Source: Thermodesulfovibrionales bacterium (GTDB taxonomy: Bacteria > Nitrospirota > Thermodesulfovibrionia > Thermodesulfovibrionales > SM23-35). Taken from it: a stretch of DNA of 64,000 bases. Under the pieces are notes generated by a model. The model was given only the letters and a program-made list of their open reading frames with translations. It was not told the DNA's origin and searched no databases. The DNA is taken from NCBI GenBank assembly GCA_963715195.1, contig CAVQRT010000003.1, positions 128,001-192,000 on the forward strand, written 5' to 3'. A program made the translations under genes and the position numbers. This document shows positions 3,374 through 21,097 of the stretch, in pieces; position 1 is the first letter of the stretch; each line of letters opens with the position of its first letter.

Positions 3374-6300
3374 GCCCTGAGTGCTTCTGTTTCAGGTGAA
3401 GGCTCTAGTCCCAGCGCGGCAGAAGTTTTACGACGACGATTGTAAACCGCACGGGCTTCTGCTCTTCTTCCCATACGCTGATAGCGGCCATGAGTCGCTG
3501 GTAAAAGTTTTGGGCGAGGTCATCCACTTCAATGCCCTTGCGAAAAAGGGATTTTGCGCTTTGCACTTCTCCCCTCTTTTCGAAAAAAGGCCAGCCATCT
3601 CAATATTTGAAGAAATCTATTCTAGATGTTCACGAAAAGGATGCTACCCAGGGCTCACCTTCATCAGCCAAAAAATGCCCCGCATTAATTTCAAAGCTCT
3701 TGCGAAAGCGACATGATATTCAATTTGATTTCCCCTGTCATTCCTCCCGTCCAAACAGATCTTCCAAACGATTCAGAATTCTCTGCAGAAACCACGCATC
3801 AACCCAACAGCAACGGTCGATTGTTATTTTTCCATCACTGACGATCAGGGCTTTTTCACTGTGTCTCGGAGTTCACGGAGACGAGATAAGTAGGTTTGAA
3901 AGTGATATGACCGACCATCACCATATGCATCTAGCAGGAACATAAATGAGACGATCTTCTGAAACACCTTTTCCCTCCGCAAGCAATCACTGCTTTCAGA
4001 GCAGAAGCAGTTTCAATAGCACCTCCCCGGAGCCTCACGGGCTGCCCTGCTTTCCTAACCCAAACCGACCCAAGGTATTCAGTGTTTCCAACGGCCAGGG
4101 CCATCGTTCATCAACTGCAAGAAGTATCTGGAGAAGGTGGTCTTGTTTCTTTCGAATAGGAGTCTTTATATATTTTTCTTCAATTCCATGCTCAGTGCTT
4201 TCGTGAGGACAGTTTCCAGAGACACAAGGTTCAAGAGGCATCAATAGATTCATCGATCCTTTTTCTCGTCCTTTCTTCATCCCCTTGCGTATTGCCCTGA
4301 GAGCAGGCACTTCTTTTCCCTTCCTCAGGTAGAAGTATGCCTCAGTAAACAACAGGATGAAGGGCACAAATTCATTGTTGCTTTGCAATCCCAATGGTGT
4401 GAGCTCGTGAAAGACTTTTGAATGCCTGATTATTCTCCCCAAAGGCATTTGCAAGATAGGCTTTCCAGTACATAGGCGACAGAAGGGGTCCATGGATTAC
4501 CGATATCTTCACACAGCCTCAGACATTCTTCAGCATGAGTTGATGTTTGAGAGAGACTACCCTGATACAAGGCTACCCAGGCAGCACAGTAATGGTTGAA
4601 ACTCTTCTCCCAAGGCTTCATCAGGCTTGATGCAGAGATCATTTTTTGAAGACCGCTTTGCCTGAGGACTATTTCCACTTTTTAATGAGCTGATTAACCG
4701 TGTCCCAACAGCATATGTTCCATAACTCTGATTTTAAGGGATCGTGCCAGTTCAAGACCTTTCGACAACCACGTTCCCGCATTGTTTTTACATCGACATC
4801 ACATTAAAAAAAGCGGCCCCGAACCAGATCACAGTTAATATAATCAATGGAGGTGCATCATACCGTTCAATCATGCCCTGCAACGTTTCGAGGGCAATCT
4901 GCAATGCGCCGATTCGCCTAAACTATACAGGTAACTGGCCTCAGCAGTTGACATCATTATTTTCTGATATTCTTCCGAGGTCCTGTCAGTGATGGTGCGG
5001 ATGCAGTTTACCCATTTCTCCGCATCAATAGTTTGAGGTTTCCTCAGGTGAGTATCTTAAAGACGCTTAACACGACTTCGACCTCGGTATCTTCAGAAGG
5101 AATCCCCCATACTGTTGTATCATCCGTTCGCCTTCTTTTACCGAATTGGTCAAGCGATTTCAGACTTCTGGCCGAGTATGATCGATTCCACAGCCCGGCC
5201 CATGCCAGAAAAGACGCTGCCGCTTCATGAGATTCCCGAAAATCATAAAGTGCCTTCTCGAATACCTGCTGGCTCTATCTGGAAAACGGCATTCTGGATA
5301 CGCCTGACCAGGTAGAGCGACCAAGGATCAGCAGGTACAGCTTCTTCAGGAACAATGACCAGCCAGTTTTGGAGCGTCCCGTCTTTCCTGTCTTGTTGAG
5401 GACGGTGCCCATTTTAGAAGATAATGGATATCAGACTTTTTACGTCTCCAGATTCATGAATCAAACGAACGGCATCTTCTGCATGTTCTCATTCTTCAAG
5501 GAGCATTGCGGAATCATGTTTGATCATCGATGACTTGGCTGGGTCCAATGCACTTTTTGCCATGGAAAGTAAAAACTGCCCGGAAAAGCTGGTGATACCG
5601 GTAAGAAGTGCTTCCCTTCAATATTTTTTCGTGTGAGTATTCCTCTATAAAAAAACATCCCCTGATCAGGTCGTCCAGGATGGTATCGACATGTTTCATA
5701 CGAGTAAGTTTAGCGGCCATGTCACTACTCATTACAGGTAAGAAGCATGTCCTGAGCAAGAAGTCCTGCGTATTCTTGTCTGTCTTGAAAAAAACCTCTT
5801 GACCAAAATAGTCAAAGATATTCTGTGACGAAACCGGGACAGGTAGTCTCTCGTTATGAGACTCTGCATCGCTGCTCTTAAGAAAAAGCATGAGCCCGGC
5901 AGCCCAGCCGTTTGTCTTATCAAAAAGAGCACGAAAAACATTTTCCGGAAACCCACCCGGCATCTCCTTCTCAATGAGGTCCCTTGTCTCTTCCACAGTA
6001 AACTTCAGTGCATCCCAACCAATAATATGAGCCGACCCATGAACGATAAGACGTGCGAATGCAGGCGGTGGGTCCTTTCTGCTCAAAATGAAAAAGGTAA
6101 AACCTTCGGGAACCCCTCGTAATACATTGGCGATAATTGCATGAAACCTTGAACTGGCAGGCATTTCATGATAGTTGTCAATAACAAACATAAAAGGTTT
6201 ATTGATTCTGCTAAAGATTGCCTCGAAATAGCGATGGGAAAAAATAAGATCTCCACGTGCATGTTCAGCCGTATAGCGGGGCAATAGATGCCTTTTCTTA

Positions 6301-6626: not shown

Positions 6627-7395
6627 TTACACCCTTATCGTATCCCCATCCTTCAATATCCTCATGTGCATGAGGCTGAGTTTCTTCAGTTCATTTTTGA
6701 TAATTCCTTGATACTGTGGTTTTAAATGCGTAATACAGAGCTGCTCCGGTTTCTGTTGTATTTTCGCCAGTTCTTTTACCAGCAATTCCGGCGTCAGGTG
6801 TCCGCTTCGTAACGCCATTGCGCTCAAGGCATTGGGGAATGAAACGTCGATGATGAGGCAATTCAGTTTCTTATTCCCGAGTTTTTCCCACGTTCTTGCA
6901 GACGGCCCCGTATCCCCGGTATAAAAAAATATTCTACTCTTTCCATCTTCGACAAGATATCCAACTGCTGATACAGTGTGATTCACCTCGTATGGAGTAA
7001 TGGTGTAACTGTTCACACGGATTGATTTCCCGGTCGAGAGCTTCACAAGGTTCAGTATCGCATCGTCAGGCTTGGGGAGGATCGTAAATCGGGCCACATG
7101 GCGCTGTTGAACAAGTGCTCCTTTATCATTCTTAAAACCGGGGGGATACGATAGAGCGAGACTTTATTCTGTTTTTTTGAAACGATAATATTATCGGCAA
7201 GAAATGGAATGCTTGCGATGTGATCAAGGTGCGCATGAGTGATGAAGATATGTTTTATTTTCATCTGAGCCTTTTCATCCAGCGCCCCGGTAAAGCTTCC
7301 TGCATCGAATATGATTTCTTCATTCAGAAAGAAAACTCGGGGGTCTTATGCCCCGGCAATTCCGCACCCGAACAGCCTATGACCTTGATTTTCAT
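6627..7395 (-). CDS. MBL-fold (class II-like) 3',5'-cyclic nucleotide phosphodiesterase; frameshifted
   Basis: MKIKVIGCSGAE, THAHLDH, VNHTV, YTGDTG, DVSFPN, SGHLTP, ITHLKP across three frames. Confidence 0.8.
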
Positions 7396-7563: not shown

Positions 7564-10021
7564 TTACGAAGAGACCTTGTATATCCTTACCCCCTGCTCT
7601 TTCCCTTTCACTTTAACCTTTGCGAGATCAATAAATTTCACCCCGCTCATACTACCAGATTCGATGCTCTTTCTGATATGCTCATAGGTAGGTTCTGTAA
7701 TCAGTATCCTCGGTTCATACTGCCGGGTGATCTTTTCCACCCGCGATGCGAGATTGACTGTGTCACCGATGACCGTGTAATCCATCTTCATGCCCTCCAC
7801 ACCGATGTTGCCGACCAGTACTTCACCGGTGTTGATGCCTATGCCGCAGTTGAGAACCGGCTTGCCCTCCTTCTCCCATTTCTTCTGGAGTTCATCGAGC
7901 GTCTTCGAAACCTCGAGTGCGCACTGAACCGCAAGTTCGGCATGGTTCGGCTGCGGAAAGGGAGCCCCCCAGAATGCCATTATCTGGTCGCCTGCAAACT
8001 CGTCTAGCGTGCCCTGCCACTTAAATATCCCGGTGCTCATTTCTGTAAAGTATTCATTCAGGATCGAGACTACTTCCTCCGGCTGCAGTTTCTCTGAGAG
8101 TGATGTGAACCCAATAAGGTCCATGAATAAGATCGTGACAGTCTTCCTGTCACCGCCGAGATTGACTTCTACGTCTTTGTGGATGATATCTTCGACAACC
8201 TGGGGTGAAAGATAACGGGAGAGATTCGTCCGTATGATCTCTTCCTTTTTGATCTGGTCAACGAGCTTGGCGTTTTCGATAGCCACTGCACCGCTGTTCG
8301 CTAAGGTATTCAAAAGATTGATATCCTCACGGGTGTAAAAATGACCCGACTTCTTGTAGCCAGGGCAAGGGCTCCCTTGACCGTATCCTGATGAAGGAGA
8401 GGCAGCACCATGCTTACCCCCATTCTCGAAAACCGGTCAGTGCAGGTATCCCTGATATCTTTGTAGCGAGGGTCTTCGTTTATGTCGTAGATGGTAATCA
8501 GCTTCTTGTTTTGTGAAATGAGATTGACAAACGGGTCATCGTACTGTATGCATTCGTTTTCATTGGTCTGGACTGATCAGTCTCATCGCCGATAAACATA
8601 GTTTGACATTCTTTCTTCTTGTCATCGAGAATAAGCACGCCGGCCTTATCAATAAACATTTCAAGCCTTGCTGTATTGATGAGCTTCCGAATGATTTCGT
8701 TCAGGTCTAGCATCGAGGTCAACGCATTGCTGACTTTCGTGACGGTCTCCTTGTAATCAAACTTCTTCCGGTAAAAGAGCTTGTCAACGGCGGTCTGAAC
8801 CGTCCTGTTGAGTGGATTGAAAAAGAAAACGACAATAATCGCAAAAAGTACCGGGTAGATTTTTTCTGAGTGTTCGCCGAATACCGGCTCGAACGTCGTC
8901 TGACTCCCACCTGCAGCGAGAAATACGTCAGGCCGACGACAGCGGTCATAATAGCATACCCAACTGCCCTTTTGACGTAGACGTCGACATCGAAGAGGTT
9001 GTGCTTTGCTATTGCATACGCGATAGATGCAGGAAATATGATGATGGGAATCGAGGTAAAATTTGTTATGACTTCAAATCCCACCAACGTTTCCCCCAAG
9101 AATGCGGCAAGGGACCAACTGCCGGTATGGGTAGCGCAAGCAAGGCTCCAAAAAGGACCACCTTCGCACGCTGCCTTGCAAGCACTGATGATTTCTTTGC
9201 AAAAGCATGAAGATTGAAACAATTAATGCGAGTGCACTATGAGCGCATAGAAAAGGACAATGGTAGAAGAATGGTAAACGCAGGTTGGGGATAGGAGATT
9301 TGTATAGGCACAACCAGTACTGTCGATATTATATAGGGAATAAGCTGAAAACGCGGACGTTTGTCGACCAACCTCGATCTTTCGGGGAACAACAGGCTGA
9401 GATGGAGAACGACAGCAGGCAGAAAGGCATCGTCGAAAAGATAAGCCTTACAAATCCAAAGTGTGTTGTTTCCAAATCGAAGGACACGAATGATGAAACA
9501 CCTTGAAGGAGACAAGCGCAGAAAAAACCCAGCTGATCATCGCATCGGGCTTGAGATGAAATACGATAATTCCGAGCAAAAGATAGAAGATGCCCAGGAA
9601 AAAAATGATGCCGAAGGTCAACTAGGTCTATGCCTGTAAAACGCATCGTTGGAACAGTTACCGAAATGACTTCGGCTTCTCTCTTAACCTGGTATTGAAT
9701 CGGGGTACCTACCTTAGTATTCAGGACTATTTCCTCGAGGACCTTTGCGGAAGAGACTTCTTTCCCATTGGCCCTAAGAATCTTGTCAGGATATTTCAAA
9801 CCGGCCTGCGTTCCGGTCCAGTGGTACTGACCAATATATCCGACAACCATCCGCTGATTGACGAGAAACCCCGGGAAAGGCTTATCTAACCATTGCACGG
9901 CGTTCCAGATGCATACTGCACCAATAGTCAAGGCAGCAATAATAAGTGCGATAAAAACAACCCTGCCGATGGATTGTCCGCCTGGTAAGTTTTTAGAAAA
10001 AGAGGATATCATGCTATTCAT
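7564..10021 (-). CDS. Membrane-bound class III nucleotidyl cyclase (TM-PDZ-multiTM-GAF-cyclase); frameshifted
   Basis: PDZ-like QAGLKYPDKILRANG; TM segments; GAF (YKKSGHFYTREDINLLNTLANSGAVAIENA); cyclase ILFMDLIGFT, GTLDEFAGD, YTVIGDTVNLASRVE. Confidence 0.85.
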
Positions 10022-10049
10022 ATCTAAAATTCGGATAAGATCTTTCTCC

Positions 10050-10133
10050 GTCATTGCCCGACTTGATCGGGCAATCCAGTATCGAATAAAAAGCTCTAAA
10101 GAACTGGATTATCCGGTCAAGCCGGATAATGAC
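10050..10133. repeat. GTCATT...AATGAC REP/MITE-like palindrome doublet
   Basis: GTCATTGCCCGACTTGATCGGGCAATCCAG...CTGGATTATCCGGTCAAGCCGGATAATGAC. Confidence 0.8.
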
Positions 10134-10260
10134 ACCCACTGGAACGGAGTTCGCCATGAATCTACTCAAGAATAAGCTAATCTCACAAGACAAAAGAATG
10201 CAATAAGTCCTGCCCATTTTTTGGAGAGGAAATTTTCTACGTATGTAAAAATCTTATATC

Positions 10261-11514
10261 TTAAAAATAGACCTGCAGCCCTAATCCTATGTATTGAGAC
10301 TTAAAGATATTATTTGAACCGGCAAATCTGTTTCGATATGAAATGGAGCCAGTGAGGGGAACCGGGAATTTTTTTGCCATATAGAGCGGCAATGTCGAAT
10401 AGGATAATGTGCCGATAAAAACGTGTTCTGTATAATCAGTTTCATCTTCCAGTGATTTGTATGCATATCCTTTATTACCTGAAACATCATCTTTCAAGGC
10501 AAATCCGTATTTATAATTTAAAGTCGCATCAAATCCAGGTGTTATGGTGTATTTCCCTGACACATCAATTTCAATAACATCACCGATGTCCCTATCAACT
10601 TTCTCCTTGTTAGCAGTAATTGGCAGGTCTACATCATCGGGGATTCTTAATTTTTCATGATCAGGCAATATCAAATCATATCTGAATGTTGCGTTGAGCA
10701 CCAAATTCTTTATGCCGGTGTAATCATTGTTTAAACGGAAAAGCAGTGCATAGGCACCAGTTCCTATTGGATAGGCAGTTAAATCATCAGGATCGTCTAT
10801 CTCACCGCTTGGAAACCTCACCCCTCCGGTAAAAGCAAGCCTCCAGTTGTCCGTCTTCAAATATTGATATCTGGCTCCCAATTCAATATCACCTATACCG
10901 TTATTCTTAAAAGTTCCGAACTCCTTATATCCGAAACCGGGAACGTCAATAGTCCCATCCCCATTGATATCAAGGCCCTTAGCTAAAAGAGCTATGACAT
11001 CCTTTTTCGTCAGGGGAACTGTTCCCGGACAGCGAGGGGGACAAGGTTATTTAAAGCAGCATTTTTACCGAACGGTTGCAGCAGAGGTATCCAGACTCGA
11101 TTTCACCTCATTCTTCACCCACCAATACGGCAGTAAAATTCCCACCGAGAGCTTGTCAGTTACACCGTACATGAAGGTCATTTCCGTTATTGTGAAGTAA
11201 TAATCAAACGAAACATCAGTTCTCCCAAGATTTGCGGATCCCGGCGGCATGCCGAAAAAATCTTCTATAAGGCTTAAATCAGTAAAGACGGTGCTATCCA
11301 AAGTGGTATTGTAATCTGTTGCTACGTCCTCGGTATCGCCATCAGGGTCATAACGCTCATTGATCTTGAAATAAAACTTGCCGTCGAGGCTGATATTTGC
11401 CACCCCCTTAGGCAACACTTCAGCGCTGTCGGCATAACAAATAGCAGCGATTGCCAAAAAGATGAGACAGATTAAGAAGCTACTTCCATACATCATGCGT
11501 CCTCGCCTTTTCAT
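10261..11514 (-). CDS. Outer-membrane beta-barrel ('transporter'-like) protein; frameshifted near 10950-11070
   Basis: Signal peptide, AEVLPKGV, YGVTDKLSVG, GIGDIELGARYQ, alternating beta pattern, C-terminal GLQVYF; DINGDGTID loop. Confidence 0.7.
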
Positions 11515-11565: not shown

Positions 11566-13161
11566 CTATTTCAAGAAATATTTACGAACAAGTTCATTCC
11601 ACACAATCATACCGATCACCAGTAAAGAAATAATATAAATAAACCAATCGCCGTATCTGTTGTAAAAGGACCTTTCCGAAGTCAACGGAATTTGCCCCAC
11701 CAGGTATCCCTCGACATCGACGTCTCTTCCCGCTTCGTCCTTGACCCTGCCCACAATCCGCCCGTTCGGTTCGATAATACATGAGACACCGGTCGAAGCA
11801 GTCCTCGCAATAGCCACATGATTTTCGACAGCCCGAAGAACGCTCATCGCTGTCATTTGATAATGTGCTGCCGGAACACGTGTAAAACCTTCATTCGTCA
11901 TGTTGACCATAAAGTCAACCCCTTTTGAAGACATCTCCCGGAATTGATCAGGAAACATATATTCCCAGCAGATGAGGACCCCGAATGTTGTTCCGTTCAT
12001 GTTGAAAATGGTTAATTCATTGCCCGGTTCATGGTCCGTAATATCCGAGATAATCCATGAGGGCCACTTTAGATACTCTCGCATAGGCAGGTATTCATCA
12101 AAGGGAAGGAGGCGTATTTTATCATACCTTCCTATATTTCTCCCTTCCGGTGAGAAAAGAAAGGCAGAATTCGCAACTCTTTTTTTCTTTCTCTTATCCC
12201 TGCTGAACTTATCAAAGCCGCTCGACCCGATTAGAAGGAAATTGCCTGTTTGTTGCGCCAATTCAGAAAGCATTTTGAATCGTTGCCAGTCGTAGGGAAT
12301 CCTTCCGGGCACCGACGAAGAAGGCCACAAGATAAGGTCGGGTTTCGACTCCGCCGCACGCAGCGTTTGATCGGAGTATTTCTGAAAAATCCCCTCCCTG
12401 TACGTAGCATCAAACTTATATTTATCAGTCCAGTACCGGTCGTCCCAGTAAACGTTCCCCTGTACCAGAGCACCTTTCAGAGAAGGAAAACGTTTAGCGT
12501 CCCGCCAAGACAAAGACCCGGAGAAGACAGATAATGCGAATACGGCCAAAACAGCAGCAGCAAGCAGGAATAAGGATCTTCTCAAACTTATTGTCCCAAG
12601 TATTCCCTGAGGAATACTCAAACGAGAAGAAAGAATCGATTCGGTAATTTCTGCGATAACAGTATTCACCGCAACGATCAGAAACGAAACACCGTAAACC
12701 CCCGTGAAAGCGGCAACCTGGATAACAGGAATGACAGAATACTGCGAATATCCCAAAATCCCCCAGGGCCATGATAAAAAACCCACGTGGCTTCGTAAAA
12801 ACTCAAGAGCAACCCATACTGATGGAAAAGTAAGGACATTCCACTTTGGATACTTGTTGTGAAAATAGTGCGCTAAATATCCGAACAAGCCAAAGTATAA
12901 TGCAACACCCACTAATGTAATGCTGAAATGGAGCAGATTGAAAGACTCTATTTTCAGCACCCACCACTGGAGACCGAAATTGAACACGAGACTTGCAGCC
13001 ATTGATGACAGGCATGCCCCGAGAGGGCCTGCTTGCCTGATAACAATAAGAAGGGGCACAAGGGCTATCCAGGCTAAATAGTGCATCTCGAAACCCGGGA
13101 AGATCAATATGAGAAAAGTTGCAGAGAGGAATACTGAACTTATAATGAAAAGGACTCTCAC
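11566..13161 (-). CDS. lnt: Apolipoprotein N-acyltransferase (Lnt)-like protein with the catalytic Glu replaced
   Basis: WIALVPL, WVALEFLRS, LGYSQ, GVYGVSF, VQGN, WPSS (normally WPES), YDKIRLLPFDEY, ICWE, RAVEN, YNRYGDW. Confidence 0.85.
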   Translation of the reverse strand: MRVLFIISSVFLSATFLILIFPGFEMHYLAWIALVPLLIVIRQAGPLGACLSSMAASLVFNFGLQWWVLKIESFNLLHFSITLVGVALYFGLFGYLAHYFHNKYPKWNVLTFPSVWVALEFLRSHVGFLSWPWGILGYSQYSVIPVIQVAAFTGVYGVSFLIVAVNTVIAEITESILSSRLSIPQGILGTISLRRSLFLLAAAVLAVFALSVFSGSLSWRDAKRFPSLKGALVQGNVYWDDRYWTDKYKFDATYREGIFQKYSDQTLRAAESKPDLILWPSSSVPGRIPYDWQRFKMLSELAQQTGNFLLIGSSGFDKFSRDKRKKKRVANSAFLFSPEGRNIGRYDKIRLLPFDEYLPMREYLKWPSWIISDITDHEPGNELTIFNMNGTTFGVLICWEYMFPDQFREMSSKGVDFMVNMTNEGFTRVPAAHYQMTAMSVLRAVENHVAIARTASTGVSCIIEPNGRIVGRVKDEAGRDVDVEGYLVGQIPLTSERSFYNRYGDWFIYIISLLVIGMIVWNELVRKYFLK

Positions 13162-13258: not shown

Positions 13259-13749
13259 CTATTTCACAGCAAGCTCAACATCAAATACAGCGTAAAAGGC
13301 AGGAGGGAAGTGACAACATCTACCTGAGCAAATTGCTTTGCAGATTTCAAGGAAACTGTCAGATCGGTATCACCTCCAAAAAATGCATCTATAACCTGTG
13401 GTGCCATTGCTTCAGTAATTTCCGCCTGGTTCAACGCAATATCGTTAATAAGAACTCCTTCTGCCGTGCCATAGAGAAGTACTGGGTCACCGCTTCCCTT
13501 CTGTAATCTCAACACGATCTTTGCATCAGCAATGCTATTAAGAGGATTACCTCCAGGTATCTCGACGTTGTAATATTCTATACAGATAACCCCGTTCAGT
13601 TTTGTCCCGGCTGCATCGGACTGATATGCCATCCCGTGTGGGGGATCACCAGTGTCTGCCTGCTGAGGTGCCCCTGAGCCTCCATATGCCAGTGAGCACG
13701 TAAAGGCTATTACCAAAAGGACCATTCCTATGTTCTTTAGCTGTTTCAT
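13259..13749 (-). CDS. Exported hypothetical protein (probable C-terminal frameshift)
   Basis: GGAG RBS, signal MKQLKNIGMVLLVIAFTCSLAYG; alternative frame ends FPPAFYAVFDVELAVK*. Confidence 0.65.
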
Positions 13750-13889: not shown

Positions 13890-14768
13890 CTACTGCAGCG
13901 TCACATCTGCCCGGTCAGCCGATGTATAACCCGTCCCGATATACCATGTGACCTTTCCGCCCTTGTTTGTGTATTTGATTGATTGATCAAGGATGACCCC
14001 TGTGCCGCTCTTGTAGTGATAGCCTCCGAACCGGCTGTTATAAGACGAGGTCAGCTGCATCAAATGCCCCGCCTCGTGTGCTATCGTGTGATTGATGTAT
14101 TTGGCATAAAGTTCAGGACGCTCAACTCCTGTGCTGTCCTGACACTGGCTTGCGCCAGTACACACGTCGTCAATGAAATTTATGATCCGCTGCGTGTAAA
14201 TGGTTGAGTAGTCCAAACCGTTCGGTGTCCCATAGTTGGCAAAGCCAAGGACATCCAAATTCGAAACATCCAGACTCTCCGTAATCATGATCGCCTTCTG
14301 CTGCGATGCCGATGTGACTCTCCTGTCAGCATCTGCTTGACCCGGATCAAGTTGGTGAGCAGCAATTCCAAGACCCCCGTCTGCCGCGGTCTTGGTGATG
14401 TATGCCAGGGGATCTGCGGTCATGTTGCTTGGCGCCTCTGGAACAAAAACCACAAACAGGTCCTTCGAATCTGGATCCATACGGTCTGGTCTATTCAATC
14501 CACTATTGGCCCCAGGGAAATGACTCATGTCAGAAAATCCCTCACACTCCAGTTGGTCCGAAAACCCGTCTCCATCAGCATCCTCTAACGGACTAGGACC
14601 TGCAGTGCAGTCCACCAGTGCGTAGGCAGGCACGCTGGAAAGACACAAAGCCAAAGCAAGGACGAGTATAATCATCAGCCAGGAATACTTCCATAAACTG
14701 AAAAAATTTCTCATACCTAAGCTATAGACAACTCGCTTTTCTGTTCTGTAACCATTCTTCTTAAACAT
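13890..14768 (-). CDS. Exported putative zinc metallopeptidase with an acidic Ca-binding loop
   Basis: Signal peptide ending AYA; DADGDGFSD; TIAHEAGH (HExxH). Confidence 0.7.
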   Translation of the reverse strand: MFKKNGYRTEKRVVYSLGMRNFFSLWKYSWLMIILVLALALCLSSVPAYALVDCTAGPSPLEDADGDGFSDQLECEGFSDMSHFPGANSGLNRPDRMDPDSKDLFVVFVPEAPSNMTADPLAYITKTAADGGLGIAAHQLDPGQADADRRVTSASQQKAIMITESLDVSNLDVLGFANYGTPNGLDYSTIYTQRIINFIDDVCTGASQCQDSTGVERPELYAKYINHTIAHEAGHLMQLTSSYNSRFGGYHYKSGTGVILDQSIKYTNKGGKVTWYIGTGYTSADRADVTLQ

Positions 14769-14842: not shown

Positions 14843-16926
14843 TTATTTCTTATGAATTACGATCGACCCACCGCCGAGAGCAGTAGTGGGTTCAGCCGAT
14901 TCATCAGCGCCGATCATATTGTCGTAAACGATCGTGTCAGCATTATTTTTATCCCAAATCTTGATTCTGAACTTATCAGTCCTCCGCCTCCGTTGATCTG
15001 GCCGTCAATCGCCGTAATCATAAACCCGTAGTTGCCTGAGCCATTAATCGTTCCAGTGCCTTTATACTTTGCCCTTGCGCCGGCAATCACAAGCCAATCA
15101 TAAGAAGAAGAGTGGAAAGTCAGATCCGCAACCTTGAACTGGAACTGAGTTTCGCCAGTTGGAGCGGTAGCACCTTTCTTATATTTGGATACGAATCCAA
15201 AGGTCGCTTTGCCAGTAAGACTTGGATCGGCTGCATAAGCTCCGAGAGGTGAATCGATCCAGCCCCCGCCAGTCACAAAACCACTACTGGCATCATACGT
15301 CACCACGTATTGATAAGTGGCCTCACCGCTTCCTCCCCGGTTATCCTGAACTTTCAGCTTAAGCGTATATACTCCAGGGACACTATATGTATGAGTGCCT
15401 CTGGCCACGCCAGTGCCAGCTCCCTCATTAACTATCCCCTCGCTGTCTGAACTATCTCCCCAGTCCCATGTCGCGATGTGCGTATCAGCAGTATCACCGT
15501 CGGTAAAGTTCGCGCTGACCGATACGGCTAAATTCGACGCAACCGGTTCCGACGGAGCAGTGATATCACCAACTACCGGATTATTGTTTTCGGTAGGAAT
15601 TATTGTGATAATAGTTTCTGGAGAACTGATTGCCCCCACCCACAGGTACGCACATGGATCCTGCAGTGGTGTGCACATTCCGCCCACAATGTCAGGATCC
15701 GTAATATAGTTCGAGTAGGTTGCCGTAATACCATATTGACCCCCGATGAGCACCTGCGAATCGTACATTTCATCAAGATAACAGCCAGTCACCTTGTAAC
15801 ATTGTTCCGCGTCTAGGGTCATAACGTCTGTCGGTATTCCATAGGCTCGCCATACCCTGTCCTTTGGAGGTAGGATATAACGTAAACCATTCAATATATA
15901 CTCAGCTGAGAAAGTCGTATTGTAGCATTCAGGCGTAATAATATCGATTGCTAAGCCACTATCATTGCAGAACTGCGCTTCAACCAATATCTGACTTCCT
16001 TCATTTATGGGTCCCGTCGGCACCGCAATAGTCTCTGTCTTACCATCACAAGCATCTCCAAGGCCATCTCTATCCTGATCTCCTTGATCTGGATTAGGGG
16101 CAGTCGGGCAATTGTCGCAGGCATCTCCTATTCCATCTAAATCTTCGTCTTTTTGATCAGGATTGTAAATTGATACACAGTTATCAACATCATTACAGAC
16201 TCCATCGACATCCGCATCAGGACAGATTCCTGCAATTTTGGATGAAAGGACCGACCCTATTGCACTTCTCTGAGGTGTTTTCGTCAGGAGGACCAAAACC
16301 TCCGCAGGTTGCATCCCGAGAGGGGTATCCGCCGCAAACTCTATAGCAAAAGACGGCAAGGCAGAATATGGACTTTCAATACCTACAAGAGCACCCGGCG
16401 AGAAATAAAAAGTATCCATTTGCGATATCCAGTTCCATTGCACATATGCCTGAGTACCGTCATCAACATAGACTATTTCCCATGCACTATTACTGCAATA
16501 ATAGGTACCGGGTCCATTAATGCCCTTCGTGTAAGCAGTCCCTCCCGTTGGAACATAAAAAGGTGGCACTGCAGATGTATTAAAAAACCCGACCGGTTCG
16601 TATATCCCGATAACTTGACTGCCAGGCTCAATACAATTCTAAAAGACTTTATCCCATAAGCTGAAGTATTCCACATGTCATACTGAATACGTTTAACTCG
16701 GTATAGGCGATTGTGGACAAAAAGAGAGCAATTTTCATCGAGGTATCCCGTCAAATTAGGAGAGTCACTCACATAACCAACTTCAACAGTACCTAAGTCC
16801 CCTTTGAAAGTTGTTTCCGTGCCTCTCAGCGCACTAGCAGTATTTGCCAACAGTAAAAGAGAGATCACACTACAAAAAACAAAAACGAAATTTTTCAACT
16901 TCATGCATCTGTTCATTTTTACTCAT
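14843..16926 (-). CDS. Secreted thrombospondin type-3 repeat / PKD domain protein; frameshifted
   Basis: AGGAGGT RBS and signal ...TASA; DNCxxxxNPDQxDxDxDGxGDACD repeats; PKD WDWGD...[10 protein letters not shown]-terminal GGGWIDSP...[11 protein letters not shown]...[10 protein letters not shown]. Confidence 0.8.
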
Positions 16927-17716: not shown

Positions 17717-18130
17717 TTAAACCGGCCATATTTTAAATGATGTCTTGCCGTGAATACGATATGCACCAAAACCTTTCCGATCAAGAGTGCATATTTCACT
17801 GATGTCCATTTCCTCAGCAAGGGTCACGAGGGTAGCATCAGCAAAATCCATTGGAATATCTGCATACTTTTCCATGAGGGCAGATGCCCGGGATAAGCTC
17901 TCCACTGATTGAGGGATGAGAGTTGCACCACCCCTCACGATAAAGTCAATGCATGATATCTGAGCTTTCACCGAAGAACCAAGCAGATAAATGGTCTCTG
18001 TAAGTACCGGTTCAGTGGTGAAGAGATTACCCTTGAACTCTTTGAAAAATCCTATGCACCGCTCATGGTTTCTCTCGCTTTTGTCCAGCAAAGCCACAAA
18101 TACGCCGGTATCAAGCAGCACGCTACGCAC
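17717..18130 (-). CDS. vapC: PIN-domain toxin (VapC family)
   Basis: LLDTGVFVA, VLTET, MDFADA, TLDRKGF acidic tetrad. Confidence 0.9.
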   Translation of the reverse strand: MRSVLLDTGVFVALLDKSERNHERCIGFFKEFKGNLFTTEPVLTETIYLLGSSVKAQISCIDFIVRGGATLIPQSVESLSRASALMEKYADIPMDFADATLVTLAEEMDISEICTLDRKGFGAYRIHGKTSFKIWPV

Positions 18131-18380
18131 GACGTTTAAATCTTTTCAAAAGGTGCTCCCTGTGTGACTCACCGAGGTCAGGGATGCCGCTCGTAACACT
18201 TCCAAGAAGGCTCTTCACTTTTTCATAGGGACTGCTCTCTTCTTTCTCCCCGGCTTGTTTGACGAAACTTTCCAATGCCATTCGTACAATATCCGCCCGC
18301 TTCAGGTGAAGCTTTTTGGCAAGCAATAATATATCTTTTTCAAGACTATCAGGTAATCTGACCGTCAGTTGAGAGTTCAT
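18123..18380 (-). CDS. Ribbon-helix-helix (CopG-like) antitoxin
   Basis: QLTVRLPD...KRADIVRMAL; GIPDLG tail; overlaps the toxin start. Confidence 0.85.
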   Translation of the reverse strand: MNSQLTVRLPDSLEKDILLLAKKLHLKRADIVRMALESFVKQAGEKEESSPYEKVKSLLGSVTSGIPDLGESHREHLLKRFKRRA

Positions 18381-18713: not shown

Positions 18714-19574
18714 CTACTGCAAATCCAGAAGGGATACATGCATGAAAACTCCTTCAGTCGCGTGCATGAGATCGGAACAGCTCCTCGCATTTTCTATAGC
18801 GATAGAGGCATAAATGGAAAGGGAACGCAGCATCTTTAGGTCTTCCAGGGTAAATAACTTCTGTGAGCTGTAGCTCATATTGATCACGCCAAAAACCGAA
18901 CTTTTCCACCTGAGCGGGACACACAGCAGAGAGGTAATGCCCGCATGCCCTTTCTTAAAGCGCGGGTCAGAAAGGACATTGTTCACCAGTTCAGCCTTGC
19001 CGGTATTGATCACATCTCCTGCGATGCCTACACCGATAGGTAAATCCTCCTTGGGATCCCATACGGTACCGAAAGCAGCCTTGATCAGCAGGGATTTTTT
19101 ATCCTCATCAACAAGCATTATAGAGCCGTTTTCAGCAGTGATAATATTCCGGGCCTCTTCGATGACAAAATTGCAGGTTTCCTCAACATCGATGCACAAT
19201 CCCAGGCGCTTTCTCTTTACCTGCGCAAATTCCTCATCAAGCCTCCGTATTCTCGAGCTCATCGATTCGATAAGCCGCAATACCAGCGTCGGGTCGCGAT
19301 CGATTGTCTGAAAAAGTTTTTGCTTGTCAATGCCCAGTATCCTTGTATCACCGACTGCAGTGGCGGTTGCAGACCGGGGCAGCCGGTCAAAAAGAGCCAT
19401 CTCTCCAAAAATCTCCCCTTGTTCGATGATCGCAATCGGAACTTCTCCTGCGGGCGACTTTTTCGTTATGCTTACGCTGCCGGATTGGACAACATACATG
19501 CGGTCACCCTCTTCTCCCTCCTGAAATATTACGTCTCCGTCTGAATAAACCCTGCCGAGTTCACTTTCTTTCAT
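18714..19574 (-). CDS. cNMP-binding + GAF domain protein with no output domain
   Basis: IFQEGEEGDRMYVV, FGEMALFDRLPRSATA; GAF GIAGDV...DPRF...LLCVPL...IAIENA; start after GGAGG. Confidence 0.85.
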   Translation of the reverse strand: MKESELGRVYSDGDVIFQEGEEGDRMYVVQSGSVSITKKSPAGEVPIAIIEQGEIFGEMALFDRLPRSATATAVGDTRILGIDKQKLFQTIDRDPTLVLRLIESMSSRIRRLDEEFAQVKRKRLGLCIDVEETCNFVIEEARNIITAENGSIMLVDEDKKSLLIKAAFGTVWDPKEDLPIGVGIAGDVINTGKAELVNNVLSDPRFKKGHAGITSLLCVPLRWKSSVFGVINMSYSSQKLFTLEDLKMLRSLSIYASIAIENARSCSDLMHATEGVFMHVSLLDLQ

Positions 19575-19620
19575 AAGACCTCCACCGCTAGGATATCTGT
19601 CTCTACATCTAAAATCATCC

Positions 19621-19708
19621 GTCATTGTCCGGCTTGACCGGCCAATCCAGAACCTATGAATCCCGAAAGAATCCGAAAATGGATTCCCCGATCAAGTCGG
19701 GGAATGAC
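19621..19708. repeat. GTCATT...AATGAC REP/MITE-like palindrome doublet
   Basis: GTCATTGTCCGGCTTGACCGGCCAATCC...GGATTCCCCGATCAAGTCGGGGAATGAC. Confidence 0.8.
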
Positions 19709-19786
19709 TGACTATTGTAACTTCAATGTATATATGGACTCAAACTATTCCCAGCTTGCGTTATTCATGCATAAAATCTGATATGG

Positions 19787-21097
19787 CTACTTTCTGAAAT
19801 ACTCACTCACCAGATCATAAACCATGGGTGCACTCAAGGACCTGAAAAAAATATTCCGGTACCGCTCATTTCCGGTAAACATGTCCCACAACATTGAACT
19901 GAGCCGTTTGGGATATGCTGGATCTGCCTGTTCTTTCCGCACAACCCTGAGCATCCCCTTCGTCAAAGCCTCATATTTCTTATGCAGATCGGTCACTGCA
20001 AAAAGAACTTTTCCATAGCGATTATCGATCATGATGTTCTTATAGACAGGATGGTAATTCTCTTCAAAATTTCTTCTGCTCACTCCATAAAGAATGGCGG
20101 TTTTTGCAGCCGCCTTCCCCATGATATACGCAGCCCCCAGCCCGTCCTTAAACAACCTTGTTGAACCGGCATCTCCACAGAGAACAACCCTGTCGGCAAA
20201 TGCAACCTCGGGAGCCCTGATATTCATCTTCGGAAGGCAACGGCATGCTATCTCGTATGCCCCCTTGCCCGGTAGAACAGACTGCACGACAGGATGATCA
20301 ATAAATGCATTAACCGTATTGTGATCGATATTCTCACCAAGAATACATACGGTCACATAGGTCCCTTTCGGAATGATTGCTGCGAACTTCATGTCCCTCA
20401 CAGGCAGGAGAAAAAGATTAACGGAGGTTCCGAAATATTCGGAGAGGACATTCTTGTCCATATAGATTTCTGAAATCGCGGCAGAAACTGTCTCAGGCTT
20501 CCGGTAACCGAATCCCATCTCTTCGAATATGGCAAAGGTCTGACTTTTTACGCCGACCGCCCCTACCACCAGATCCGGCTCCTGAATCTTTGTCTGCCCT
20601 GAAAATAACACAGGCCTGTTGTTTGCATAGGCAATGCGGTCGATCTTTTCATGATTATGAACCGCTCCTTCACGAATTGCCAGATCAAGGAGAAACCTGT
20701 CGAAGCTCTCTTTCTCGCTTCCGATAATCCCCCTTGGCCCTCCCCCGCGGTATACCGTAGCAATGGTCTTTTCTTTGGCAGGAGTTTCGATATATACATT
20801 CCCGTATTGCGTGTGAAGTTTATAGGAATTGATGCCGCGTTGAACAAGTGAATCCGGCAGGTTGATACCTTCGACAGCCAGATTCTGGACCAGCAGTTCG
20901 GAGATGATACCGCCGCATTTGTTGCAGCCGATTGGCCCGTCCCTGGTGAAATCCTTGGGTTCGTAGATCGTAACATTGACTGACTTTTCCATCATTTTTG
21001 CCATCTTGAGAGCGAAAATGCTGAAAAAGGAGCCTGTGGGCCCTCCACCAACTACGGCAATCTGGGCATCATTACGGAGTATCAATGAATCATCCAC
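19787..21097 (-). CDS. FAD-dependent oxidoreductase, geranylgeranyl-reductase-like
   Basis: VVGGGPTG, CNKCGG, FDRFLL..A...GA, CGDAG...DGLG. Confidence 0.75.
   Translation of the reverse strand: MDDSLILRNDAQIAVVGGGPTGSFFSIFALKMAKMMEKSVNVTIYEPKDFTRDGPIGCNKCGGIISELLVQNLAVEGINLPDSLVQRGINSYKLHTQYGNVYIETPAKEKTIATVYRGGGPRGIIGSEKESFDRFLLDLAIREGAVHNHEKIDRIAYANNRPVLFSGQTKIQEPDLVVGAVGVKSQTFAIFEEMGFGYRKPETVSAAISEIYMDKNVLSEYFGTSVNLFLLPVRDMKFAAIIPKGTYVTVCILGENIDHNTVNAFIDHPVVQSVLPGKGAYEIACRCLPKMNIRAPEVAFADRVVLCGDAGSTRLFKDGLGAAYIMGKAAAKTAILYGVSRRNFEENYHPVYKNIMIDNRYGKVLFAVTDLHKKYEALTKGMLRVVRKEQADPAYPKRLSSMLWDMFTGNERYRNIFFRSLSAPMVYDLVSEYFRK

Follow-up and report, generated by a model that had tools for sequence, protein, structure and literature searches.

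The nitrilase superfamily is defined by a Glu-Lys-Cys triad, and a gene for a protein that shares its fold with apolipoprotein N-acyltransferase (Lnt) but has serine in place of the glutamate raises the question of what such a protein might still do. The gene lies in a stretch of 64,000 nucleotides (the window) from a Thermodesulfovibrionales bacterium (GenBank assembly GCA_963715195.1, contig CAVQRT010000003.1, here C3, forward-strand positions 128,001 to 192,000; Table 1). A preliminary description had presented it as an Lnt paralogue, either a pseudoenzyme or an enzyme of altered chemistry, perhaps a lipid or lipoprotein sensor heading a unit with a barrel and a cyclase.

Table 1. Features around the Lnt-like gene, with positions counted from the first nucleotide of the window.
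Feature	Position	Strand	Basis or remark
MalT-like ATPase regulator fragment	5514..6284	-	1096-aa ORF intact on contig C5; near few homologous loci
Metallo-beta-lactamase-fold, class II cyclic-nucleotide phosphodiesterase-like gene, frameshifted	6627..7395	-	related-strain indel at 7085
Membrane sensor: TM, PDZ, predicted 7TM bundle, GAF, class III nucleotide cyclase	7564..10054	-	frameshifted here
Predicted outer-membrane barrel, C-terminal Phe	10261..11514	-	PF13557 weak, below cut-off; frameshifted here
Lnt-fold paralogue, LNT_N membrane domain and CN_hydrolase domain	11566..13161	-	531 aa, intact; Pfam
Cys398, E. coli C387 nucleophile, invariant	11968..11970	-	121/121 Glu-less rows
Glu356, E. 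coli E343, fourth catalytic residue	12094..12096	-	119/121 Glu-less rows
Asp355, E. coli Gly342 column, candidate replacement acid	12097..12099	-	covaries with Glu281 loss
Lys348, E. coli K335, invariant	12118..12120	-	121/121 Glu-less rows
Ser281 (TCT), E. coli Glu267 column	12319..12321	-	codon read and HMMER alignment
Small secreted protein	13259..13749	-	predicted signal peptide ends Ala-Tyr-Gly; mature start Gly-Ser-Gly at 13680
Secreted HEXXH (HEAGH) protein, predicted metallopeptidase-like	13890..14768	-	motif 14078-14064, conserved position
Large secreted multidomain protein (TSP3, PKD), in pieces	14914..16916	-	variable cassette member

Serine at the catalytic glutamate position

The ORF runs from a GTG start at 13161 to 11566 with no internal stops, and the earlier reading of an intact 531-residue frame with TCT at the glutamate site was confirmed on the minus strand. 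The codons of W279-P280-S281-S282-S283 are TGG CCT TCT TCG TCG, and TCT differs from GAA and GAG at all three bases, as had been said. A read error, already judged unlikely, is excluded: WPSSS is also present on contigs C5 and C4, and serine occupies the column in 92 of 334 non-redundant homologues. In HMMER alignments WPSSS pairs with WPET/WPES of the solved Pseudomonas aeruginosa and E. coli Lnt proteins; the same alignments match YDK to the catalytic lysine, ICWE to the catalytic cysteine and NEGFT to NDAWF, bearing out the two motifs described as kept and the one described as altered. The RNA sequencing run yielded five short contigs, none of which gives depth over the gene, and the sequencing runs searched contained at best 11% of words.

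The protein has both the membrane domain and the nitrilase domain fold of Lnt. It scores 259 bits against TIGR00546 (cut-off 132.9), and its AlphaFold2 model (95 sequences; pLDDT 91.2, pTM 0.92) finds E. coli and P. aeruginosa Lnt as its closest structures (Foldseek, VIA-align), with Z 37.5 and an rmsd of 2.9 over 469 residues against E. coli Lnt 8b0k. The likeness covers the whole fold, the domain order and the equivalents of K335, C387, E343, E389, N314, P346, R432 and E435. The Glu-Lys-Cys triad is incomplete: Lys348 and Cys398 are there and Ser281 takes the glutamate column, while the fourth catalytic glutamate (E343) and E389 are represented by Glu356 and Glu400. Besides E267 (Ser) and G342 (Asp), the equivalents of G145, W237, V339, Y388, W415, F416 and H425 are changed, and the gene differs from a housekeeping lnt in being an extra copy within a signalling cassette.

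That it is a paralogue, and not the only lnt of its genome, follows from a canonical, Glu-bearing Lnt on contig C30 (WPET, PFGEY, NDAWF), 31% identical to the Lnt-like protein; its gene is followed by release-factor- and DnaA-like ORFs, recognised by eye. Further WPSSS copies lie on contig C5 (94%) and, frameshifted, on contig C4. Contig C5 agrees with C3 to about 94% along some 20 kb, and contamination of the assembly stands at 6.6%, so these copies may be strain variants; the three in this genome were not treated as independent. Another group of Lnt paralogues (loci L030-L043, e.g. L033:1355-2290 and L039:8846-9754) keeps the glutamate, has YRK and CWENL motifs and lacks the sensor, and two of its genes stand directly behind a lipoprotein gene that looks CsgG-like by eye.

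Homologues were pooled from the best matches of each search together with this genome, so that proportions are not population frequencies; of 385 sequences, 357 spanned the key columns, and de-duplication at 90% left 334. The glutamate is absent from 121 of the 334, being replaced by Ser (92), Ala (27), Asp (1) or Lys (1). Although these rows share a mean pairwise identity of 43% and only 17 invariant columns, Lys348, Cys398 and Glu/Asp400 are each kept in 121/121, Glu356 in 119/121 and Asn331 in 118/121; the second most conserved cysteine column after Cys398 reaches 49/121. The catalytic residues are not degenerate or drifting, as those of a pseudoenzyme would be, and catalytic-domain dN/dS is about 0.1 for the pairs that could be computed (one pair was saturated). 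A tree of the non-Glu homologues and a survey of their neighbours, both proposed in the preliminary description, place all 121 Glu-less rows inside one clade of 149 rows (support 99; FastTree, columns 281, 333 and 355 removed) with a conserved cassette. In the sequences compared, the missing glutamate is a family trait and not a quirk of one gene.

The best match among 40 relatives searched was no better than E 8e-79, and the 19 of them with loci read all showed canonical Lnt. Across 400 genomes from the phylum, the strongest match outside this genome retains the glutamate (11 of 17 matches read). A separate Glu-bearing Lnt was found in all five other tested genomes with Glu-less members, whose records are titled Nitrospirae, Desulfobulbaceae, Desulfotignum, Desulfuromonadales and Deltaproteobacteria. 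The Glu-less gene is patchily distributed, as a mobile accessory cassette would be.

Covariation of acids at positions 281, 333 and 355

A new acid at position 355 or 333 is carried by 103 of the 121 Glu-less rows, against 2 of 213 rows with the glutamate. It is usually Asp355, in the column of E. coli Gly342; a second Glu-less subclade has Glu333 instead, in the strand that bears Asn331. Within the 149-row clade, 27 rows have Glu281 only, 86 an acid at 355 only and 16 Glu333 only; one combines Glu333 with Asp355, one Glu281 with Asp355, and 18 have none, yet these 18 of the 121 Glu-less rows keep the cysteine and the lysine. Another acidic residue at the site had been named in the preliminary description as grounds against its own reading, and the covarying acid of the 103 rows comes close to being one, as far as an alignment can tell.

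A single Glu-less clade was rejected by the AU test (p 4e-7, 46 chosen rows), so site 281 changed more than once; position 281 is, on the sequences, one that switched repeatedly, in one direction or the other. In a Pagel test Glu281 and the acid at 355 were correlated (LR 27.1, 4 df; one fitted rate at its bound), column 355 ranked first of 129 variable catalytic-domain columns (runner-up 18.4), and none of 146 simulated independent traits reached 27.1 (maximum 17.1). A strict independent-pairs test, of low power, was not significant (6 pairs, median p 0.125), and an earlier one, likewise of low power, yielded only 2 to 3 starred pairs. It is covariation only that suggests that Asp355 lies close to the active site. 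Asp355 could be merely a counter-ion for Lys348, and Glu424 (E. coli Asp413), common in Glu-bearing relatives too, is another possible base.

The residues implicated in the handling of the acceptor have changed as well. In E. coli Lnt, mutants of G145, V339, G342, Y388 and F416 are described as failing (PMC5500890), as is the W237 mutant, W237 being needed for the acceptor step (PMC6971011), and H425 is a proposed helper residue (PMC5500888). Equivalents of all of these, taken from sequence alignment, are intact in 20/20 canonical rows, and nearly every Glu-less row has them altered; the window protein has S130 for G145, L352 for V339, D355 for G342, W399 for Y388 and T427 for F416. The W237 loop aligns poorly, and no conserved tryptophan occupies the W237 column in Glu-less rows. 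Both W237 and F416 are retained in most of the wider Glu-bearing, sensor-linked relatives and lost in the 149-row clade. With W237, F416, H425 and G145 gone, an ordinary lipoprotein is an unlikely acceptor, judging by these columns.

The cassette and its small secreted protein

The cassette consists of a HEXXH protein, a small secreted protein, the Lnt-like gene, often a barrel, and a PDZ-7TM-GAF sensor. Its composition was counted in 37 Glu-less loci, some near-duplicates and many truncated, with profiles built from those same loci. The Lnt-like gene does not head the unit, as had been proposed: a conserved, co-directional small secreted gene lies directly upstream in 24 of the 25 loci with 0.8 kb of upstream sequence, and the HEXXH gene in 21 of the 22 with 2 kb. 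The proposed tie to the sensor-cyclase gene stood, the sensor being found in 31 of the 37 loci and in 23/23 where 2.5 kb downstream are present; the barrel gene is found in 17 of 37 (many truncated). The sensor also accompanies 43 of 52 Glu-bearing relatives, so the link predates the loss of the glutamate; among more distant Lnt loci it was seen once in 17. Canonical lnt loci had cassette neighbours in 0 of 20, a weak control given that 19 of the loci had flanks of only 1.5 kb. Overall, the genes that recur nearby encode the sensor, the barrel, the HEXXH protein, a phosphodiesterase, and STAS and ATPase proteins.

Several loci extend this picture. On the same contig, outside the window, a truncated second cassette (L132, C3:113313-114744) comprises a large secreted gene, an HEXXH gene, a small gene with a predicted Gly start and the first 88 Lnt-like codons only, followed by Fic/Doc-like and helix-turn-helix ORFs (by eye). 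Locus L153 (genome G419) has an Lnt with NDAWF and the glutamate beside a sensor homologue, and the pairing thus extends to near-canonical Lnts. A Glu-bearing, sensor-linked subgroup (L071, L083, L101, L106, L116, L120, L121, L128) has a recurring neighbour family of its own, the one scanned member of which is a B12-binding radical SAM protein.

Frameshifts interrupt the window's copies of the sensor, barrel, phosphodiesterase and small genes. Contigs of related strains have indels at 7085, 9620 (sensor), 11026 and 11070 (both barrel); the sensor is intact on C4 (851-aa ORF) and the barrel on C4 and C5, so assembly error is the likelier cause of the frameshifts. Two apparent fusions were set aside as evidence: the junction of L052 contains unresolved bases, and in L058 the barrel is still preceded by a ribosome-binding site and a start codon.

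The TM-PDZ-membrane bundle-GAF-cyclase layout of the sensor was recognised by Pfam in five loci, and many other loci have sensors that are PP2C-like by a crude motif scan. The sensor model (pLDDT 87.4) has a PDZ part resembling the HtrA/DegS type (Z 13.4, rmsd 1.5). The membrane bundle matches GPCR-like 7TM bundles more weakly; its Z of 11-12 is below the value of about 13 under which matches between helical bundles call for caution, and the likeness is one of arrangement only. Atlas matches of the sensor are unnamed PDZ/7TM clusters; a plasmid search gave no match, and no ComP-type family in NCBIfam or Pfam matched. Distances of Lnt-like proteins and sensors are modestly correlated (rho 0.30, 52 loci), and the sensors that accompany Ser/Asp Lnt-like members share 25% to 59% identity with that of this genome. 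In the cyclase domain (7564-8313), what we take to be the ATP/GTP specificity residue is Glu in the window and Lys in the copies on C4 and C5; the difference may reflect either an error in a single base or a true switch. Seven more ORFs on contigs C2, C3, C14, C19, C26 and C31, away from Lnt-like genes, weakly match the PDZ-membrane profile (27-47 bits).

Among the exported members, an HEXXH homologue matches the M6 metalloprotease domain weakly (E 6.5e-5, far under the cut-off). The barrel's weak PF13557 match is to a family that presumably comprises channels for hydrophobic compounds. Large secreted proteins of the cassettes (L130:8777-9289 and 21 homologous loci) have in common a conserved C-terminal domain with no Pfam match, possibly a sorting signal for the barrel; no such domain was found in the large protein of the window. 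Between the barrel and sensor genes (about 10050-10135) lies a short palindromic repeat that matches many unrelated contigs with high summed depth and looks like a dispersed intergenic element. Beyond the large protein, the window contains a PIN-domain-like and ribbon-helix-helix-like pair (17717-18380; a toxin-antitoxin module by eye), co-directional genes just upstream of the cassette (18714-21097) that encode a cNMP-binding and GAF protein and a flavoprotein of geranylgeranyl-reductase-like type, and an unrelated ABC/TolC operon (21.7-28.3 kb).

The small secreted protein is the candidate substrate. It has no match in Pfam or NCBIfam and no usable match in the Atlas, and the C-terminus of its family (xAVK) lies in another frame here, which indicates a frameshift near the 3' end. 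In all three copies in this genome the mature protein is predicted to begin Gly-Ser-Gly. Under a hand-made cleavage rule that visibly mis-cuts some sequences, applied across related loci, position +1 is glycine at 12 of the 21 loci that have Glu281 and at 4 of the 9 that combine Ser/Ala with an acid at 355; the Glu333 loci give 1 of 9, and those lacking any acid 0 of 4. For comparison, the same residue stands there in 1 of 49 further proteins of the cassettes and in 21 of 212 proteins of the genome. Loci with Glu281 or an acid at 355 (16 of 30) differ from those with neither (1 of 13) at p 0.006 by Fisher's test, uncorrected for kinship. An invariant glycine was rejected, as it is only enriched and found in about half of the loci; several small proteins beside the Glu333 subclade begin with glutamine. 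No recurring lipobox-type start was seen, by eye, among the cassette proteins viewed. The glycine counts fit acylation of glycine by the Glu- or Asp-bearing members and something else in the rest.

Possible roles and known counterparts

The reading that we favour, with a probability of roughly 0.4, is that the protein is a still-active acyltransferase dedicated to its cassette, in which Asp355 would replace Glu281, the small secreted protein would be acylated, and the sensor would read the lipidated form. That the protein turns over as an enzyme seems probable, and if it does, Asp355 would quite probably be its base. The N-terminal glycine of the small protein as acceptor, as for AatD, would fall a little short of an even bet, and a sensor that reads the lipidated product and sets a cyclic-nucleotide or phosphatase output would stand at about even odds. 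Weighing against the favoured reading, E267Q and E267A are described as killing E. coli Lnt (PMC5500888, PMC5500890), AatD is described as retaining its four catalytic residues (PMC7943197), 18 Glu-less rows carry neither new acid, and glycine begins only 4 of 9 small proteins beside Ser/Ala members with Asp355. Of the two alternatives first proposed, altered chemistry or specificity gained support, and the pseudoenzyme was weakened by a new acid, present in 103/121 and almost never alongside the glutamate, and by the invariant cysteine and lysine (121/121).

AatD, an Lnt homologue, is described as acylating the N-terminal glycine of a small signal-peptidase-I product (PMC7943197). Compared by description, the cassette resembles the AatD/CexD system of enteric E. 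coli (PMC7943197, PMC13622617, PMC8689077) in co-encoding a small protein that would be cleaved by signal peptidase I, has no lipobox and, in this genome and many loci, has a Gly/Ser-rich mature N-terminus. The differences are that AatD, in the account given in PMC7943197, keeps all four catalytic residues at 100% conservation whereas the glutamate is absent here, that the glycine of its substrate is described as invariant whereas about half of the present loci have one, and that no AatPABC-type secretion genes recur here, the PDZ-7TM sensor recurring instead.

An unlikely alternative is a covalent co-receptor, in which Cys398 would be acylated once by a lipid or lipopeptide, the loss of the glutamate would slow release and the sensor would read the acylated state; the earlier idea of a lipid or lipoprotein sensor survives in this rival form. 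Cysteine and lysine that stay invariant without a base, the 18 rows without any replacement acid and the sensor as the most constant neighbour would all suit it. It also has a chemical parallel in a nitrilase-family amidase of Nesterenkonia, whose E41Q and E41L mutants have lost the first glutamate, keep the cysteine and lysine and carry covalent adducts on the active-site cysteine (PDB 4IZT, 4IZU, 4IZW, as described in the entries), but those are engineered mutants of a soluble enzyme and this is a natural family. Against the co-receptor, the E267A mutant of E. coli Lnt reportedly forms no acyl-enzyme (PMC5500890). The repeated switching between Glu281 and Asp355 suggests that one acid is wanted, the co-divergence of enzyme and sensor is loose (the rho of 0.30 and the 25% to 59% sensor identities given above), and both apparent fusions are unconvincing.

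Of a similarly low likelihood is an active enzyme with some other acceptor, which would make, remodel or hydrolyse a lipid or acyl-amide signal to be carried by the barrel and bound by the 7TM sensor. It shares the same catalytic conservation with the cassette-dedicated acyltransferase, and it would accommodate the loss in the clade of W237, which serves the acceptor step in E. coli according to PMC6971011, the scarcity of glycine (1 of 13) beside Glu333 and no-acid members, and the weak PF13557 match of the barrel. It leaves unexplained the enrichment of glycine beside Glu- and Asp-bearing members and the small gene kept directly upstream in 24 of 25 loci, and the barrel that it calls for turns up at only 17 of the 37 Glu-less loci, many of them truncated.

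Quite improbable is a non-covalent pseudoenzyme or scaffold that would bind a lipid or lipoprotein and partner the sensor. The changes in the general base and in seven other residues important in E. coli Lnt would be expected of it, but a dispensable nucleophile should drift, and Cys398 is kept in 121/121 against 49/121 for the next cysteine column; Glu281, too, recurs in several lineages, nearly always without Asp355. Very improbable is a spare housekeeping Lnt that N-acylates ordinary lipoproteins: the TIGR00546 score and full Lnt fold would allow it, but every tested carrier (this genome and 5/5 others) has a separate Glu-bearing Lnt, essential residues are changed and no recurring lipobox-type start was seen by eye. 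A sequencing artefact or decaying gene, to which the many frameshifts of neighbouring window genes might point, is refuted by the homologue set, with its family-wide conservation, dN/dS of about 0.1, intact cassettes elsewhere and related-strain indels at several of the breaks.

The cassette-dedicated acyltransferase can be extended into a broader proposal that is possible but rather doubtful: a natural nitrilase-superfamily family whose general base migrated twice and reversibly, from Glu281 to Asp355 or Glu333, would be the signal synthase of a Gram-negative lipoprotein-signalling cassette, in which an acylated small protein, processed and moved by the HEXXH peptidase and barrel, would be read by the PDZ-7TM receptor and converted to a cyclic-nucleotide or phosphatase output. 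Such a system would be a counterpart of ComQXP built from lipoprotein-maturation parts. By analogy only, ComQXPA of Bacillus likewise joins a lipid-modifying enzyme, a secreted precursor and a receptor (PMC9620489). The sensor has the TM1-PDZ-multi-TM receptor layout, and ComP is described with TM1, an extracellular PDZ domain, a multi-helix membrane domain of about 380-400 residues and then a cytoplasmic output (PMC9620489). As far as that account goes, the systems differ in the enzyme (an acyltransferase fold here, a prenyltransferase there), the precursor (a secreted protein of 140-170 residues against a peptide) and the receptor (cyclase- or phosphatase-like output against a histidine kinase, with ten helices predicted in ComP).

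An open-access literature search, with most subscription papers outside its coverage, returned neither an Lnt family lacking the glutamate nor a cassette that pairs Lnt with a PDZ sensor. On sequence grounds the protein is a real, conserved Lnt variant whose catalytic acid appears to have migrated, and it belongs to a signalling cassette undescribed in the literature covered. Glu-less proteins pass the lnt cut-off, and many of their records say apolipoprotein N-acyltransferase, masking the change. The glutamate is indispensable in Lnt and AatD, and the existence of natural Glu-only, Asp355, Glu333 and no-acid forms makes the roles of the two active-site glutamates directly testable. If the favoured reading is true, the cassette would extend non-cysteine protein lipidation beyond enteric pathogens and would supply a candidate ligand for an uncharacterised family of PDZ-7TM receptors.
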